DNA from: Escherichia phage SP27
DNA: 64,000 bases
Direction: 5' to 3' (one strand)
Sequence record: LC494302.1
Made by a program: the position numbers and the translations under genes. Positions 8,178 through 29,155 of the stretch are shown here, piece by piece. Under the pieces are notes generated by a model, which ran no database searches, was not told the DNA's origin, and was given only the letters and a program-made list of their open reading frames with translations. How positions within the stretch are numbered: the first letter of the stretch is position 1; every line of letters begins with the position of its first letter.

Positions 8178-8513
<336 letters not shown>

Positions 8514-8514
8514 A

Positions 8515-8697
8515 ATGACACACGAAGAATGGATGTCCAAACAGCATAAAGAACATGACTGCTTTGGGAATGGCATTCGTCAGGTACATTATGATATATT
8601 AAGAGATGAAAATCTTTTCAGGTCATATGTTTTGGATACCAGAAAACCCTGGTTTATATGCGAACTGGCATTTAGAAAGTCAAATAATCAAAACTAA
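8515..8697 (+). CDS. MTHEEWM-family small protein
   Basis: Starts MTHEEWM, paralog. Confidence 0.45.
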   Translation: MTHEEWMSKQHKEHDCFGNGIRQVHYDILRDENLFRSYVLDTRKPWFICELAFRKSNNQN

Positions 8698-8713
8698 ACA
8701 AGGAATACAAAAA

Positions 8714-8932
8714 ATGGAAACAACTTTATTTGAAGTTATTCAATCATTAAAACCTGAAGATGAGGTTCAAGTACTACTACATGGTTATCGTGTAAAAGGT
8801 ACTGTGGTTTTAGTCAATGATACAACATTGGTTATTACAGAAACAAACCCATATGATAGTAATCAACTTGCCAATATCCATATCGATATCACTGGAATTA
8901 TTGGTGTCGGTGTATCTAAAACACTTGCATAA
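8714..8932 (+). CDS. hypothetical protein
   Basis: Start at METTLFE after AAGGAA RBS; 72 aa. Confidence 0.4.
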   Translation: METTLFEVIQSLKPEDEVQVLLHGYRVKGTVVLVNDTTLVITETNPYDSNQLANIHIDITGIIGVGVSKTLA

Positions 8933-8985
8933 ATCATTAATTCATTATATAATGATTATCACTGGTTCTAGATGAGGATAATATT

Positions 8986-9258
8986 ATGCATTTTGAAAAA
9001 TTCAACGTAAATCGTAACACACGCATTGAAGTTCTTTATGAAACTCAAGACACCATTAGTATTCGTACAAGTAGTGGGGATGTATATCATGACTGTACGA
9101 TTGGCTGGGAACAGGGAAGAACGCGTAGTGCAGTATTTGATAATTATCGCTTTTATCAAGGAGACACTACGATTTGGCCTGAATACGTAGAAGATATTGC
9201 GTTTGAAGATGAACATAAAGATGAATTTATCAAATTTAATCCTCAAACTGAATCATAA
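8986..9258 (+). CDS. hypothetical protein
   Basis: 90 aa, GAGGATAA RBS. Confidence 0.4.
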   Translation: MHFEKFNVNRNTRIEVLYETQDTISIRTSSGDVYHDCTIGWEQGRTRSAVFDNYRFYQGDTTIWPEYVEDIAFEDEHKDEFIKFNPQTES

Positions 9259-9275
9259 ATAATGGGACATCACAT

Positions 9276-9391
<116 letters not shown>

Positions 9392-9395
9392 AAAT

Positions 9396-9497
<102 letters not shown>

Positions 9498-9502
9498 AAA
9501 CC

Positions 9503-9663
9503 ATGACGCATGAAGAATGGATGAATGACATTAATTTTAGATATGCAGGTTTCGGTAACTGGAGAAAGTATCATTGGGAAATCATGTCAGACCCAGCAGA
9601 ATACGATAAACTTATAAACCATGAAGCGTATCCGTGGTTCTTTATTGAAATAATGGTACGAAC

Positions 9664-9667
<4 letters not shown>
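9503..9667 (+). CDS. MTHEEWM-family small protein
   Basis: 54 aa starting MTHEEWM. Confidence 0.4.
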
Positions 9668-9829
<162 letters not shown>

Positions 9830-9837
9830 AAAAAAAG

Positions 9838-10247
<410 letters not shown>

Positions 10248-10251
<4 letters not shown>

Positions 10252-10281
10252 CTAAATAATTCAGTACTGAGGATATTAATA
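10248..10281 (+). promoter_or_regulatory. promoter-like element with CAGTACTG
   Basis: TTGACTaaataatTCAGTACTGagg; weaker -10. Confidence 0.35.
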
Positions 10282-10308
10282 TGTTTAAAGATGAACGTCC
10301 AGATTTGT

Positions 10309-10356
<48 letters not shown>

Positions 10357-10379
10357 ATCAGACGTATATGGTGTAAGTT

Positions 10380-10700
10380 ACGTCGATGCAATCCAGAACA
10401 AGATCTCTGGTACTCTAGGAAGTGGTGAATGTTAACCTAGACGGGTTTGATAATTGGACGATAGGCAATTATTACTTGACTAGCAGGTTGAAACTAGAGG
10501 TGACAGTCCTTCACCAAACTGGAAAACCGGATGGACTTTTATTTAAAAGGGTAAGGCGTGGAAATATGTTTACAGAAGTTGCTTTTAGTAGCCTGTACGC
10601 CCCACGTCAAGGTAGCCGAAAGGCAAGTTAAAACGGATGGTTATAAAGCTGAATTAACAGCGGCGTTTAAAAGCGTCACCATCCATTTTTTTAATTAAAG
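10380..10700 (+). ncRNA. candidate structured RNA (unclassified)
   Basis: GC-richer ~320 bp behind a promoter, no convincing ORF, GAAA-looped hairpins (GTAGCCGAAAGGCAAGT) and GGATGG...CCATCC closing stem. Confidence 0.3.
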
Positions 10701-10708
10701 TTGGTGAT

Positions 10709-11473
<765 letters not shown>

Positions 11474-11491
11474 TTCACATGATATAGGGTG

Positions 11492-12161
<670 letters not shown>

Positions 12162-12180
12162 AGAGGTACTTCGAGTATGC

Positions 12181-12304
<124 letters not shown>

Positions 12305-12307
12305 ATA

Positions 12308-12394
<87 letters not shown>

Positions 12395-12449
12395 GACTGC
12401 CAAACAGCTTGAAGTACTTTGTAGTGCTGCACCTATGCCGACACTTGGC

Positions 12450-12550
<101 letters not shown>

Positions 12551-12562
12551 TATCTTACTTCT

Positions 12563-12652
<90 letters not shown>

Positions 12653-23923: not shown

Positions 23924-24889
23924 GTGAAAAAGCTTGATTTAAATACAATTGCCGAAGAAGTTCTGGATGAATGTTTTGCTAATGAAGAAGTCAACACACT
24001 AGAAGCCTTAGATTTCGTTGAAGATAAAGATGATAATGAAGGTAAAGTACAAAGCAGTTTCAAATATAATATTACACTTAAGCGACCACCAAATGTTTCC
24101 AATGAAGATCTAATTCGTGATATTCAAGCTGGTATCAATGTAAAGAAAAACACTGAACTGTTAGTTCGTTACAATTATGGACTGATTATTGATGTAGCAA
24201 GTAAATGTACTTGTTATATCCCATTTGAAGATAAGATTTCATATGGTGTTGAGGGGTTCATGAGAGCACTAAAAACCTTTGATCTTAATAAGAATGTTAA
24301 GTTCATTACCTATGCTTCTTCTAGTATTTACATGACAGTCTATAACGAAAGTTCTGACGCTAACTATATGGTACACTTCCCACGTTATATGAGTGTTCAT
24401 AAGATCAAAGTAAAAAGATTCTGCCAGGAATATATGCGTAAACATGGTGTTCGCCCAACACCTGAAATAATCTCAGAGGGTACTGGGATTGAGATTCAGC
24501 ATGTTAATAATTGTTTATTATTTCAAAGCGAATACACTTCACTGGATGCACCATTAGACGGTGTTACAGATGGTACATTAGGTGACATTATTCATTCACC
24601 TGCTTCTGATTTTAACCTCAATGTTGATAGTATCCGTGCACCTTTACGTTATGCTATCAATGAACTGACTAACGAATTGAGTACTAAAGAACGTGAGATT
24701 ATCCAGCGTGTTCATGGTCTAGGTGAATATGAACCTGAAACGCTTCGTGAGATTGCTGATAATGGTTTTGTTGATGATAATGGAAAATATGTTAAATCCC
24801 GTTCATCAATACACCGAAAGTACAGTGAAGCTATGCAAAAGCTTAAGAAGTTAGTACTTGCAAAAGGGTACGAATACGAAGATTTCTAA
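23924..24889 (+). CDS. sigma-70-family RNA polymerase sigma factor-like protein
   Basis: GTG start after TAGGAG; region-2-like LLVRYNYGLIIDVASKC...GVEGFMRALKTFDLNKNVKFITYA; region-4-like ELSTKEREIIQRVHGLGEYEPETLREIA. Confidence 0.6.
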   Translation: MKKLDLNTIAEEVLDECFANEEVNTLEALDFVEDKDDNEGKVQSSFKYNITLKRPPNVSNEDLIRDIQAGINVKKNTELLVRYNYGLIIDVASKCTCYIPFEDKISYGVEGFMRALKTFDLNKNVKFITYASSSIYMTVYNESSDANYMVHFPRYMSVHKIKVKRFCQEYMRKHGVRPTPEIISEGTGIEIQHVNNCLLFQSEYTSLDAPLDGVTDGTLGDIIHSPASDFNLNVDSIRAPLRYAINELTNELSTKEREIIQRVHGLGEYEPETLREIADNGFVDDNGKYVKSRSSIHRKYSEAMQKLKKLVLAKGYEYEDF

Positions 24890-24894
24890 AGAAC

Positions 24895-24925
24895 AAGGGT
24901 TGGCTTATGCCAACCTTTTTTTTAT
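24895..24925 (+). terminator. intrinsic terminator
   Basis: GGGTTGGC-ttat-GCCAACC plus T8. Confidence 0.65.
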
Positions 24926-24929
24926 GGGA

Positions 24930-25540
24930 TGAAGTAAAAGTTTGTGATATAATTATCTTGTACAATTCTGTTGGCATGATATTCATGTACCTGATCCACT
25001 CGAAAACGTAGAGGGCAGTTGAGCAGTCCGACAGTGCGAACAGCAAAAGAAACCCGTTAGATGTGGGCATAGTTTGAACCCCTCACGGCAATGCGGCTGT
25101 ATAAAGAACCACGTTAGGATAGCTGGTGGTTCCTTGATAGACATATAAGGATAACACCTTACGAATTATCTAAGGGAGAGTTATCGAATTTTGTACAGGA
25201 AAGTTGCGTCCAAAATTTGAGTACTCACATTAAGTATTTGATTGCATAGATACTTAATGAAGATACACTATGTTTAAAAGTGTAGACCGTCATATGAAAC
25301 TGAAGTAGAGAGAAACAGGATGACCCGCTTTCGCACTCGTTATGAGTAATCTTCAATGCAATAGCTCTGATACCATCAGCGTCAAATTTCCCTCCTTGTG
25401 GGGGGAAGAAAAATCCCTTCCTCAAATCCCGTCAATATTAAAAGTCCTTGACAGTTATTAATCATTCGCGTAGAATACGTAGTATTAGAAGCGAACAGAC
25501 ATCTCGAAGAGATGGATGATTAACCATTAAGGAATATCAA
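24930..25540 (+). ncRNA. ~600-bp non-coding, GC-richer segment; candidate structured RNA
   Basis: No plus-strand ORF of 60 aa or more, local GC clearly above neighbours, ends in promoter TTGACA-17-TAGAAT. Confidence 0.3.
25448..25476 (+). promoter_or_regulatory. sigma70-like promoter
   Basis: TTGACA, 17 bp, TAGAAT. Confidence 0.5.
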
Positions 25541-25750
25541 ATGAATTCAGTAATCTTTTTAGTAGTCGCTTTCTCTGTTAATTCCGGTGTACAAATAACC
25601 CCAATGAATTCCATGAATCAATGCATAGCAGTACGTGATAGTACATACGAACAAGTAAACAAAGATATTTGGATTACAGTTAGTAAAGAACAAATGTGGT
25701 GTTACAATAGTAATACTAACACAAAGCTTATTGTAGGACAAACTCAATGA
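25541..25750 (+). CDS. secreted small protein
   Basis: 69 aa, hydrophobic N-terminus, AAGGAA RBS. Confidence 0.35.
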   Translation: MNSVIFLVVAFSVNSGVQITPMNSMNQCIAVRDSTYEQVNKDIWITVSKEQMWCYNSNTNTKLIVGQTQ

Positions 25751-25977
25751 GTTATGGCGTTCGTTTTGAGATTCGTTCTATTGTCATCAATGCAGAGAAA
25801 CAAGTATCGTTGGATGGTGATATACGTGAAATTTATCTATCATGTATCCGTGCGAAATCTGAAGCAGATGCCTTAGTACAAATGTATAGTTTTAACTTTT
25901 CAAATGGATTCTATTTGGTACGAGTTATTGAAGTGAAAAAAGTACTTATTGGTTGTAGCATAGAAGGATTAATGTAA
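25747..25977 (+). CDS. hypothetical protein
   Basis: 76 aa, ATGA-coupled. Confidence 0.4.
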   Translation: MSYGVRFEIRSIVINAEKQVSLDGDIREIYLSCIRAKSEADALVQMYSFNFSNGFYLVRVIEVKKVLIGCSIEGLM

Positions 25978-25978
25978 A

Positions 25979-26767
25979 ATGAGCACTATAGATGAACTGA
26001 TTCGACGGAATTCAAAATATTACCAACCATCAGAAATTGTAGGTAACATTACCAAATCAGAGTTTGGTCCAAATACTCGAAAACTCATTCATGTAATGTC
26101 ACGTGATGGCTTTAAATGTGATTGTTGCGGTGAATCTAATGTAGTATTCACTTTACACAAGCACAGTACTAAAGATCGTTATAAATTCAGACCTTATGTA
26201 CTTAAAGGGAAACGCCTTGTACGCATGACGTTAGACCATAATGTACTGGACTGTCTTCAGGGCGGTAATGATAAAGAGAACATGACTGCACTGTGTGAAG
26301 ATTGTAACGCATTACGCCAGCATAAGTTTGCTGAATACAGTGAGTTTAAACACTGGTATCATAACGCGGATCGTTCAATCGAGCCTGACGTTAACTACTG
26401 CTTCATTGAGTACATTAAGAATGCCAAAGATACATACATTCTTAAATCAATGTCACCTATTACCGTGTTTCCTGAGAACCTATTCACTACATTAAAGAAT
26501 AGTTTTATTGTAGGTGATATTGATGCATTCAAGTATTTTGACAAAGGTGCAAAACATTTTGAAATTCAATGTCTTAGTACTGCACTATGTGAACTCATTA
26601 AAATTTACATAAAAGAGTATTTGGGTATTGACAATGTACGTGTACCAGAGTATACTTTTTCTATTGAATTCGATTGTGAATCAATCAAAGAGTTTGGAAT
26701 TCTTTTCAATAAACAAATAGAACTTGCAATTCAAAACGAAATCAAGTACTATACTACTAACATTTAA
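25979..26767 (+). CDS. HNH-family endonuclease
   Basis: CDCCGE ... MTLDHNVLDCLQGGNDKENMTALCEDCNALRQHKF: Cys pairs and H-N spacing typical of HNH. Confidence 0.6.
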   Translation: MSTIDELIRRNSKYYQPSEIVGNITKSEFGPNTRKLIHVMSRDGFKCDCCGESNVVFTLHKHSTKDRYKFRPYVLKGKRLVRMTLDHNVLDCLQGGNDKENMTALCEDCNALRQHKFAEYSEFKHWYHNADRSIEPDVNYCFIEYIKNAKDTYILKSMSPITVFPENLFTTLKNSFIVGDIDAFKYFDKGAKHFEIQCLSTALCELIKIYIKEYLGIDNVRVPEYTFSIEFDCESIKEFGILFNKQIELAIQNEIKYYTTNI

Positions 26768-26782
26768 TCAGAGGAAATTATC

Positions 26783-26965
26783 ATGCAAATTATCATTCTT
26801 ATCGTTGGCATCATGCTGGGTGTTTACGGTCACTCCTGGATGAACGAGAAGTTTCCTAATACGCGTCCTGAGTATTGCAGTTCTAATGTATTCCAGAATG
26901 GTGAGAAACCAAAGGAAAGCATTGGTAAAAAGCTGGATAAAGTACTTGATGTGATCAATGAATAA
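26783..26965 (+). CDS. small membrane protein
   Basis: 60 aa, N-terminal TM helix, GAGGAAA RBS. Confidence 0.35.
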   Translation: MQIIILIVGIMLGVYGHSWMNEKFPNTRPEYCSSNVFQNGEKPKESIGKKLDKVLDVINE

Positions 26966-27176
26966 GGGCCATAAAATGTTTAAACCGAATTCCAATGTTG
27001 GTAAGAAAGTTCAATTACTTGAAGATGTATCCACCATGAGTGGAATTTTCCCAAGAGGTCACATCATGACTATTATTGCCGAAACATCCCGTGGGTGGGA
27101 TTTGGAAGATGCTGATGGTAATCGCATCCTTGAGGCTGGATTCTATGGTCATCGTGAATATAAAATCGTTGATTAA
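26958..27176 (+). CDS. hypothetical protein
   Basis: 72 aa ORF. Confidence 0.4.
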   Translation: MNKGHKMFKPNSNVGKKVQLLEDVSTMSGIFPRGHIMTIIAETSRGWDLEDADGNRILEAGFYGHREYKIVD

Positions 27177-27272
27177 GGATACAACATGACTTTAGAGATT
27201 GTCTTTGGTATTGTTAGCTTAGTCGTCTGTGTGGGTTGGTTTGGGTATCTGATGATTTTTAGTGATTAATAC

Positions 27273-27300
27273 TTGACATAAGATATCAGTACTGTATAAT
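27273..27300 (+). promoter_or_regulatory. sigma70-like early promoter with CAGTACTG spacer
   Basis: TTGACA ... tCAGTACTG-TATAAT. Confidence 0.55.
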
Positions 27301-27345
27301 GTTTATATCAAACGAAATCCACTTTAACAAATGATAGGAAATATT

Positions 27346-27624
27346 ATGTCTTTTTCTAAAGAAGAACGTGACCTTATTAAAAAAGCAATTTGGTTTTATG
27401 CTAATGAAGGGAAGTGCGATGAAGAAAAAGCACGTGAACTGTGTAATATTCTTGAGAAGAAACAAGAACTGAAAGTGTATCGTATCCGTGATTTGGATGA
27501 AGGGGATCGTATTGTCCTAGCTGAAACAAAAGAAGAAGCAGAACAAATCTTCACTGATAAAAACGAAAATCCACATTGGATGGAAGAAGTCTGTGATGTT
27601 AAAAAAGGTACTTATATCGATTGA
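27346..27624 (+). CDS. hypothetical protein
   Basis: Start at MSFSKEE after AGGAAA; acidic 92 aa. Confidence 0.4.
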   Translation: MSFSKEERDLIKKAIWFYANEGKCDEEKARELCNILEKKQELKVYRIRDLDEGDRIVLAETKEEAEQIFTDKNENPHWMEEVCDVKKGTYID

Positions 27625-27649
27625 CAGTACTGAATAATAGCAGTATTAT
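27621..27649 (+). promoter_or_regulatory. promoter-like element
   Basis: TTGACAGTACTG ... TATTAT. Confidence 0.35.
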
Positions 27650-27662
27650 GTTTTATATAAAA

Positions 27663-27713
27663 GGGAATGCAGTGAAAGGAAAGACAGCATAATCGTACTC
27701 GTCACTGCGTTCC
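27663..27713 (+). other. long leader hairpin
   Basis: GGGAATGCAGTGA ... TCACTGCGTTCCC, ~13-bp stem, in 5' leader of gene 27744. Confidence 0.35.
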
Positions 27714-27743
27714 CGCCCTTTTAAATTAAATGAGGAATTAACT

Positions 27744-28052
27744 ATGTTTCAAACTAACACTCAAGGTTTTGTAATCATCGATTTGAATCAAAACAGCGGT
27801 TATTGGATGAAACCTACTGACGCATGTATGCAGTTTGATTTTTTAGGTTACAGGATTAGTGTAAGTACTGGTGCTTCTGTACTGAGAGGTGGTTGTATCG
27901 TTGAACATCTGGTAACTGATCCAGAAGGTCGTGAGTATGAAATCGCAGGTTCAGTACAAGATGCCATTATGTTTGTATGTCAGCGTGAAATGAATGGTTC
28001 GAATTCAAATGCACTGACTCATGCTCTTTCTCAAGAAGTGGAGGTTCGTTAA
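27744..28052 (+). CDS. hypothetical protein
   Basis: 102 aa, TGAGGAA RBS. Confidence 0.45.
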   Translation: MFQTNTQGFVIIDLNQNSGYWMKPTDACMQFDFLGYRISVSTGASVLRGGCIVEHLVTDPEGREYEIAGSVQDAIMFVCQREMNGSNSNALTHALSQEVEVR

Positions 28053-28297
28053 TGAAATACATTGTAGCAGTACTCGTCGCATTTCTACTCACTGCATGTG
28101 ATGCTTCTACCAAAGAACGTACAAGTGATTTTGTTCTACCTGCTGAATTAAAAGAAGCAGGGTGTAAGATTTATCGTATGCAACAAGATGGTGCTGGTGC
28201 AACTTTATACACTGTGTACTGTCCTAATGCAAATACAAGTACTGGATACACTAGCGGTAAAACACGAATCAACACTTCCGTAATTCATGGAGAATAA
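28052..28297 (+). CDS. putative lipoprotein
   Basis: Signal peptide with lipobox LLTAC (MKYIVAVLVAFLLTACDAS). Confidence 0.5.
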   Translation: MKYIVAVLVAFLLTACDASTKERTSDFVLPAELKEAGCKIYRMQQDGAGATLYTVYCPNANTSTGYTSGKTRINTSVIHGE

Positions 28298-28299
28298 CA

Positions 28300-28668
28300 A
28301 TGAGCCTTGATACAACACGTGCAGCAGATTTATTAACTCGTCTGAATGATGAAGAATATCTTGCTGAGATAAAGTACAAGCTTGACAAACTTGTTCGAAG
28401 TGCTGAAGTAATTGAAGTTGAAGGTCACTTACCGATGGATCAATACCATAGGTTCAAGGAAGATATGGTTTATTATCCTAATGAAATTTGGATTGAGTGG
28501 CAACATTGGACTAACAAAACTCTTCGCATTGAAGGGTATTGTGTGAAGTATGAAAGTTCACCTGGTGATGTTACAAAAACTCTATCAATTTGGTGTACAA
28601 AAACAAATGAACTCGTTGAGGTGAATTTGAATTATATGAATGGATTCCGTTGGGGTGATGTTAAATGA
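28300..28668 (+). CDS. hypothetical protein
   Basis: 122 aa ORF. Confidence 0.45.
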   Translation: MSLDTTRAADLLTRLNDEEYLAEIKYKLDKLVRSAEVIEVEGHLPMDQYHRFKEDMVYYPNEIWIEWQHWTNKTLRIEGYCVKYESSPGDVTKTLSIWCTKTNELVEVNLNYMNGFRWGDVK

Positions 28669-28940
28669 TTAAAAAACTCTTGACTGGAATCATTGTGTGC
28701 AGTACAATGTTTCTTACAGCATGTAATGATGACGGCAGGTTTAGTGCAAAAGACTTAGTTCGTCAGGATTGTACATTCACAGGTAAGTCTTTTATTAACG
28801 AGTATGAAATATGTACACAATCAGGTCGTATCTGTGGTGGTTGGGAAAAACGTCAGGAGCGATTGTATGTATATGAATGCCCTGGACATCACAACAAAGT
28901 ACTAAGCACACACAAACTTGTTTATGATAAGGTTGAATAA
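28665..28940 (+). CDS. putative lipoprotein
   Basis: MIKKLLTGIIVCSTMFLTACNDD signal plus lipobox. Confidence 0.5.
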   Translation: MIKKLLTGIIVCSTMFLTACNDDGRFSAKDLVRQDCTFTGKSFINEYEICTQSGRICGGWEKRQERLYVYECPGHHNKVLSTHKLVYDKVE

Positions 28941-29155
28941 TGACTACCAATGAAATGATGCAGGTTATTTGGGATAAAGGTTGTGATATTAAAATCACTA
29001 GTACTGATGTTCGTGTATTCAAAACTGAATATATGGAGTACTTGGACCTTGATACTTATAATAATATTGTATCAATTGAACACAAAGGTGCAGTACTGGA
29101 AACCATTGACGTAGTACTCAAGAAAGCTACCGACCTATTAGGAGTGGCAGTGTGA
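28940..29155 (+). CDS. hypothetical protein
   Basis: 71 aa, TAATG-coupled. Confidence 0.4.
   Translation: MTTNEMMQVIWDKGCDIKITSTDVRVFKTEYMEYLDLDTYNNIVSIEHKGAVLETIDVVLKKATDLLGVAV

Follow-up and report, generated by a model that had tools for sequence, protein, structure and literature searches.

Why would a nuclease gene be kept by most phages of a genus, and be missing from a relative that is otherwise 99-100% identical? The question is raised by Escherichia phage SP27, of which a stretch of 64,000 nucleotides (sequence record LC494302.1, one strand) was analysed. This whole stretch is called the window. The gene in question starts at position 25979. An initial annotation took it for an HNH endonuclease, a free-standing homing gene of the kind common in T4-type genomes, marking an insertion hot spot next to a non-coding island.

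The answer favoured here, with a probability of roughly 55%, is that the gene encodes an accessory, free-standing HNH DNA endonuclease of the homing or marker-exclusion kind, with a predicted activity, target and drive. The protein comes first below, then the genomes that lack it, and then the case for and against.

The protein

The HNH motif is complete, and reads C47-D-C-C50 ... L-D86-H87-N ... E-N101-M-T-A-L-C106-E-D-C109-N110. Judged by these residues, it is a zinc-stabilised HNH motif (His-Me finger) of the D-H/N/N class. Both CxxC pairs for a structural zinc site are present, as are the catalytic histidine and asparagine and the metal-ligand asparagine. Within the alignment of the 23-member family, C47, C50, T84, D86, H87, N101, C106, C109, N110 and R113 are invariant.

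Taken as a single protein, it stays below the Pfam cut-offs, with 15.7 bits against 21.4 for HNH (PF01844, residues 83-111) and 15.1 bits against 27.5 for HNH_5 (PF14279). Across the family, HNH_5 matches 20 of the 23 members and HNH 17 of the 23 (E<0.01). PHROG 35175, ‘HNH endonuclease’, aligns over its full length with 623 bits; a further 13 HNH PHROGs match as well.

AlphaFold, run on the 23-sequence alignment, gives a model with a predicted local distance difference test score (pLDDT) of 90.1 and a predicted template modelling score (pTM) of 0.70. An earlier run on a 4-sequence alignment reached a pLDDT of 48 and was discarded. The model has the beta-beta-alpha metal-finger fold of the HNH / His-Me finger proteins. 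Its structural matches are the HNH domains of Cas9, McrA and phages, and those in BFVD are phage HNH proteins. Searching the PDB by sequence, both with the single protein and with the family profile, found no meaningful match, and none of the PADLOC defence models matched the HNH protein.

The HNH motif with paired cysteines that the initial annotation had noticed is therefore borne out by the invariant residues, by PHROG 35175 and by the model. The gene is confirmed as a real, free-standing HNH endonuclease gene, outside any intron or intein, as had been claimed. It is also an ordinary one. The label ‘HNH endonuclease’ is already found in PHROGs and on GenBank relatives, for example on gene 170 of phage 121Q, a 98.5%-identical orthologue. 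Downstream of the nuclease core lies a helical domain (Table 1), which is possibly a DNA-binding or specificity module.

Presence and absence

The window comes from a RaK2/121Q-like jumbo myovirus, which the classification of related records places in the genus Asteriusvirus. Positions 24800-27200 are 100% identical to OQ708376.1 303965-306365 (Escherichia phage vB_EcoM_CRJP21). In 121Q, PBECO4, phAPEC6, slurp01 and others the identity is 96-99.8%, and these genomes measure ~350-385 kb. The T4-type label did not hold in its strict sense: RaK2-like jumbo phages have only some of the T4-like core genes in common (PMC5259590).

A second HNH gene, distantly related to the one under study, is found in 35 of 35 Asteriusvirus records, which represent 33 distinct genomes. 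Because this gene is universal, these 33 genomes serve as the denominator. The HNH protein under study was found at >=60% identity in 30 records, or 28 distinct genomes (tblastn). This leaves four genomes without the gene and one with a truncated copy, so the distribution is patchy. EC22.5-2, whose record has the same length as that of ECO103 4-12-1, gave no match to the HNH protein at >=60% identity (tblastn).

Comparing the locus with relatives that lack the gene, as had been proposed at the outset, reveals a cassette that is swapped for a short spacer. ECO103 4-12-1 has 86 bp (L006 4330-4415) in place of window positions 25720..26758, and JNE01 and Turkey5 have ~94 bp there. The JNE01/Turkey5 spacer holds a TTGACA-N17-TATACT/TATAAT promoter. 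In all three phages the small gene orf76, whose stop codon ends 1 nt before the ATG of the HNH gene, has gone together with it.

Phage A4 is different. It retains orf76 and has lost window positions 25990..26522 alone. What is left is a 264-bp open reading frame (ORF) that aligns with the final ~80 codons at 67.8% nucleotide identity (E 6e-24), and which by this alignment is a decay remnant of the C-terminus of the HNH gene. The HNH copies of SD-1_S14 and CMSTMSU are split in pieces, which could be frameshifts or sequencing errors.

The 86-bp spacer of ECO103 4-12-1 aligns with window 26628..26671, in the 3’ end of the HNH gene where the promoter-like site lies (Table 1), with a score of 41. 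For comparison, shuffled sequences score 19.7 +/- 2.4 and at most 28, and no other place in the window scores above 29. Between orf69 and orf60, ECO103 4-12-1 has nothing but this segment similar to the promoter-like site. On this alignment, the empty site in ECO103 4-12-1 may be a deletion derivative that retains an HNH 3’-end remnant. The alignment of the JNE01 spacer with the HNH 3’ end is not significant, and for this reason the deletion derivative is put forward as tentative.

Exchange and selection

How the gene went missing from ECO103 4-12-1 was mapped by sliding identity, comparing the window with ECO103 4-12-1 and JNE01. ECO103 4-12-1 is 99-100% identical to the window over 23900 to ~25480, and again over ~26874 to 29000. 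The patch in between (~25500..26870, ~1.4 kb) has been replaced, and is 76-83% identical to the window. Compared with JNE01, the left flank of this patch is 98-100% identical and the right flank 86-87%. Elsewhere in the interval JNE01 is mostly 50-90% identical, with two conserved stretches that include the neighbouring RNA (91-98%).

Given this identity pattern, the HNH-less allele of ECO103 4-12-1 is a ~1.4-kb recombinant patch from a JNE01-like phage. The patch takes in ~200 bp of the left flank and ~110 bp of the right flank of the cassette. These bounds mean that the cassette was exchanged as a unit with short flanks, which is as expected at a homing site, although the inferred direction of this event is loss of the gene.

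Selection was estimated pairwise by the Nei-Gojobori method, as the ratio of non-synonymous to synonymous change (dN/dS). Over residues 1-169 the comparison with fEgEco12 counts 25 synonymous and 2 non-synonymous changes, a ratio of 0.017; with UE-S1 the ratio is 0.066, and with 121Q it is 0.053. Purifying selection on the nuclease half is strong.

Residues 170-262 give a dS of 1.28 and a dN of 0.46 against fEgEco12, where the N-terminal part has a dS of 0.30. The higher dS means that the C-terminal module has a different and much deeper history. The divergence fits module exchange or a fast-evolving recognition domain, and is compatible with a role in specificity without being evidence for it.

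Relatives in other phages

Distant relatives were sought by an exhaustive profile-free search over 1.84 billion cluster representatives. This found 95 relatives at E<=1e-3, of which 26 at E<=1e-10. The exhaustive search was needed, since a word-indexed protein search recovered only 5 close relatives. Those relatives that were located in phage records or viral contigs are all in jumbo phages, 310-390 kb in size. The protein lineage is small, and almost confined to RaK2-like jumbo phages.

Other RaK2-like genera have relatives that are 28-38% identical (tblastn: Munch, 7t3, CBB, fHe-Yen9-03, Kaldavass, XbC2). Over the nuclease half, CBB_528/CBB_535 (gp451/gp444) and the GAP32 and RaK2 homologues belong to the same family at 31-38% identity. 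The HNH genes of CBB, GAP32, RaK2 and 121Q are free-standing like the one here, and have the same invariant C/DH/N/CxxCN residues. The position of the relatives varies between genera, and their C-terminal domains are poorly conserved. The CBB homologues have been described as free-standing HNH homing endonucleases (PMC5259590), a label that stems from annotation.

Salmonella phage Munch has a familiar order: a sigma factor gene, ~3 kb of small ORFs, an RNA copy (L027 3760-4103), 1.8 kb, and then an HNH homologue of 319 aa that is 28% identical. In CBB, where no sigma gene is nearby, one homologue follows an RNA copy at a distance of 3.6-3.8 kb, and another at 7 kb. Neither an RNA copy nor a sigma gene lies within 6 kb of the homologues in Kaldavass, fHe-Yen9-04 and two metagenomic jumbo phages. 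By these arrangements the family is old in the RaK2-like phage group, and its synteny is kept in some lineages and not in others.

A proposed homing gene, or one that settled

The proposed mechanism is as follows. The genes orf69, orf76 and HNH would probably be transcribed together from the host-type promoter at 25448. In the protein, the N-terminal module would act as the nuclease, with its Cys4 zinc site and its D-H...N...N catalytic set, and the fast-diverging C-terminal helical module would supply DNA recognition. The protein would serve as a site-specific endonuclease that is selfish, or partly so, as in ‘intronless homing / marker exclusion’. During a mixed infection, the protein may cut or nick the matching region of related phages that lack the gene. 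Repair from the genome that carries it would then copy the cassette and its flanks into the HNH-less phage. Lineages could later lose the cassette again, through deletion or allele replacement.

There is precedent in phage T4. PMC2790892 describes mobE as a free-standing HNH gene between conserved genes, patchy in its occurrence, that moves with its flanking DNA. The likeness to that description is in the free-standing gene and the patchy distribution; the one exchange with flanks that could be traced here replaced the gene by an HNH-less allele. One difference is that cleavage and drive have been shown for MobE, whereas for the gene here they are predicted. Also, searches found no similarity to MobE, or to its free-standing HNH counterparts in T4-like phages, outside the HNH core, and the carrier is an Asteriusvirus.

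Several things weigh against homing. Its cleavage site, target and biased inheritance are predictions. The sole exchange with a readable direction brought an HNH-less allele into an HNH-bearing background, which is a loss of the gene and the opposite of homing. Because orf69 is hypervariable in all lineages, the divergence of the flank is not specific to HNH status. The gene is kept in most genomes and is strongly constrained. Finally, the synteny in Munch suggests long vertical residence, although it fits mobility equally. The homing claim in the initial annotation is thus partly supported: the patchy distribution speaks for it, and the one traceable exchange, which removed the gene, and the order in Munch speak against it.

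These same observations make for a serious if less probable competitor: an accessory nuclease that has been domesticated, is passed on vertically and is of use to the phage, for instance against the DNA of hosts or competitors, or in recombination or repair. The absences would then reflect dispensability. The dN/dS of 0.017-0.066 in the nuclease half and the presence in 28 of 33 genomes suit such a gene, as does the single traceable exchange that took it away. So does the Munch homologue, with the same sigma factor gene and RNA element upstream of it. The surroundings of the gene, short ORFs and host-type promoters, are an early region going by the CBB paper (PMC5259590).

The distribution is harder to square with domestication. 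Five genomes have no intact HNH gene, one of them otherwise 99-100% identical; A4 has a decay remnant; and the positions of the homologues in CBB, Yen9-04 and Kaldavass differ. The second HNH gene, universal in Asteriusvirus, provides the contrast case of an HNH gene that is fixed. Its behaviour is that of a core gene, in contrast to the gene under study.

The neighbouring RNA

The non-coding island upstream of the HNH gene is more unusual than the gene itself. There is strong support for it being a structured RNA gene of ~400 nt that is absent from Rfam; no family in Rfam 15 matches it, even at E<=10. The HNH gene starts 589 nt downstream of the conserved core.

At the DNA level the RNA is ~70% identical across jumbo phages of Erwinia, Serratia, Pectobacterium, Yersinia, Cronobacter and Salmonella, while their proteins are only ~30% identical. 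RaK2-like jumbo genomes have 4-5 paralogues each (4 in Asteriusvirus), and copies are found in phages of at least 6 host genera. The structure was derived from 12 non-redundant copies that are 62-93% identical. Its consensus has 57 pairs in 11 helices, with compensatory double changes in 23 pairs. Paired cells stand at 98.1%, versus 34-44% with slid partners, and 0 of 500 shuffles reach the observed covariation. Inspection by eye suggests that a hairpin loop (UUGAUUGUAUAG) may pair with a downstream segment.

Each of the 18 copies examined has an extended -10 element 43-97 nt ahead of its core, which in 16 of them is an exact TGNTAYAAT. Some copies have an intrinsic terminator directly after the conserved 3’ end, and some (L020, L022, L026, L043, L051) have a hairpin and T-run between promoter and conserved core. 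The copies vary in having 0-2 inserted modules of ~32 nt (AUUUUGUACAAUAUAGUUGCGUCCAAAAUUUG). A conserved CCCC-UGC-GGGGGG hairpin and a CAAAUCYCGUCA motif come after all copies that extend far enough.

One full-length copy is chromosomal (nhmmer E 1.3e-82). It occupies a 1.4-kb non-coding gap in E. coli LR-29-1 (NZ_AP027515.1 roughly 3479059-3479513; L052 7001-7455), and has a promoter, a terminator and the 3’ hairpin. Its host is a ~10-kb integrase/resolvase island adjoining ffs; of 5426 complete E. coli genomes, two have the copy (the other is NZ_CM130020.1). Further genes of the island are for DUF4326, DUF488 and dual-OB proteins, of which only DUF4326 has a jumbo-phage homologue. Another island protein, h912, looked by eye like a Vsr-type nuclease; it has no Pfam match and no claim is made.

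Several identities for the RNA were tried and dropped. Homology to the highly expressed non-coding RNAs of the related phage PA5oct was rejected with nhmmer, which found nothing for ncRNA001 and ncRNA002, the two that were compared. A resemblance to RNase P, seen by eye, was not backed by permissive Rfam scans, which found no RNase P, group I intron, tmRNA or HEARO. A CsrA sponge, suggested by GGA motifs, was abandoned as these motifs are not conserved between copies. Pattern matches in an Oscillospiraceae metagenome-assembled genome and in one metagenome fail the RNA profile and are chance matches.

Could the nuclease depend on this RNA, as a guide, as a cofactor or in some other RNA-dependent way? 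This is very improbable. Domain scans found no RuvC or other IscB/Cas9 domain in the HNH protein. NCBIfam guided_IscB, with a cut-off of 175 bits, scores 19.8 and aligns only to residues 78-126, within the HNH part. At 262 aa, the protein also lacks the bridge-helix, REC and PAM-interacting parts of Cas9/IscB. The RNA is kept without this HNH gene in JNE01 and ECO103 4-12-1 and, going by four RNA places per record, in Turkey5 and A4. Conversely, there are distant HNH homologues, those of Kaldavass and Yen9-04, CBB gp444 and those of two metagenomic phages, with no copy of the RNA less than 6 kb away. The RNA adjoining the gene is equally conserved in genomes with and without HNH. An obligatory pairing of nuclease and RNA is rejected, as the two are not constantly linked.

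There are, for all that, endonuclease genes within ~1 kb of 3 of the 4 RNA copies in Asteriusvirus. The copies are numbered 1-4 in BLAST output order, and copy 1, the one in the window, has the HNH gene under study. The second HNH gene (203 aa; CRJP21 OQ708376.1 111478-112086; L023 2807-3472) lies ~880 nt upstream of copy 4. It matches PHROG 23285 and Pfam HNH (25.9 bits), and is also present in RaK2, K64-1 and Munch.

The third gene (OR844650.1 128964-129917 in ECO103 4-12-1) encodes a DUF723/DUF2726 ‘homing endonuclease’ of 318 aa, which matches PHROGs 559 and 9084. Compared with 121Q (L017 1588-1645) it is a clean 1077-bp insertion, and its end is 113 nt upstream of copy 3. Only ECO103 4-12-1 and EC22.5-2 have it among the Asteriusvirus records, and its nearest relatives, less than 47% identical, are in unrelated phages.

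The insertion hot spot of the initial annotation is partly upheld by this. The spot is variable, and other endonuclease genes, including the clean insertion, lie next to RNA paralogues. Other genera have no consistent linkage of HNH and RNA, and the association of endonucleases with the RNA is a post hoc observation.

A parallel can be found in the SegB endonuclease of T4. The gene segB is free-standing within a tRNA gene cluster, and leads to preferred inheritance of neighbouring RNA genes (PMC2330249), which it can also amplify (PMC13096335). T4/T6 SegB is alike in being an endonuclease gene among structured-RNA genes. It differs in having a GIY-YIG fold and tRNA genes for neighbours, whereas here there is an HNH fold beside a non-tRNA RNA, and a gene with a predicted activity. 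By analogy with SegB, the endonucleases next to the RNA paralogues might cleave close by, and in this way cause the RNA genes to be copied, spread or amplified. That is an unlikely proposition.

The locus

The coordinates of all features are in Table 1. Downstream of the sigma factor gene come the terminator, a 650-bp non-coding island, the strong promoter at 25448 and then five ORFs. These ORFs (orf69, orf76, HNH, orf60 and orf72) are tightly packed or at most 15 nt apart. The promoter-like site inside the 3’ end of the HNH gene probably serves orf60 and orf72.

Table 1 Features of the HNH locus, in window coordinates.
Feature	Position	Strand	Remarks
Sigma-70-family factor gene, phage	23924..24889	+	Pfam Sigma70 regions 2, 3, 4; PHROG 351
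Intrinsic terminator after sigma factor gene	24895..24928		Terminator scan
Extended -10 element (TGATATAAT) upstream of RNA core	24945..24953	+	Putative function
Structured RNA, conserved core (‘non-coding island’)	24988..25390	+	nhmmer E 7e-109; whole element 24945..25440
Sigma-70-like promoter, TTGACA-17-TAGAAT	25448..25476	+	Consensus scan, 11/12 matches; putative function
orf69, left flank, PHROG 37707	25541..25750	+	3’ half hypervariable among relatives
Presence/absence segment, orf76 and HNH	25720..26758	+	Comparison of Asteriusvirus loci
orf76, 76 aa, PHROG 28392, no assigned function	25747..25977	+	Upstream cassette partner
HNH endonuclease gene, 262 aa	25979..26767	+	Stop codon included
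HNH nuclease core, aa 45-116	26111..26326	+	Zinc ligands C47/C50, C106/C109; catalytic D86-H87, N101, N110
C-terminal helical domain, aa ~130-262, no fold assigned	26366..26764	+	
Promoter-like site TTGACA-17-TATACT within HNH ORF 3’ end	26628..26656	+	Near-consensus, promoter scan
orf60, right flank	26783..26965	+	First ~100 bp swapped along with cassette in ECO103 4-12-1
orf72	26958..27176		

HNH proteins that assist terminase in packaging, as in HK97-like cos phages, are common among phages. Such a packaging role is the least credible reading here: none of the 10 genes examined at 23924-28668 matches terminase, portal or structural-protein families, the gene sits in a block of small ORFs beside the sigma factor gene, it is dispensable in five genomes, and these phages have long direct terminal repeats and not cos ends (PMC13070987).

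Further upstream, the window has a tRNA gene cluster at 8200..12642, on the edges of which ARAGORN and Rfam differ. A tRNA-Gly at 8200-8272 is called by ARAGORN only, and a borderline tRNA at 9396-9474 (29.3 bits) by Rfam only. A tRNA-Ser with the unusual anticodon ACT is called at 11128-11219.

Significance

On its own the HNH gene is of little importance, being one more phage HNH endonuclease that was already annotated. What it does offer is a pair of natural alleles, with and without HNH, in phages that are otherwise 99-100% identical. This makes homing or marker exclusion directly testable in a jumbo phage. Of greater value is what turned up next to it, a structured RNA of ~400 nt that is strongly supported by covariation, and has endonuclease genes around its copies.
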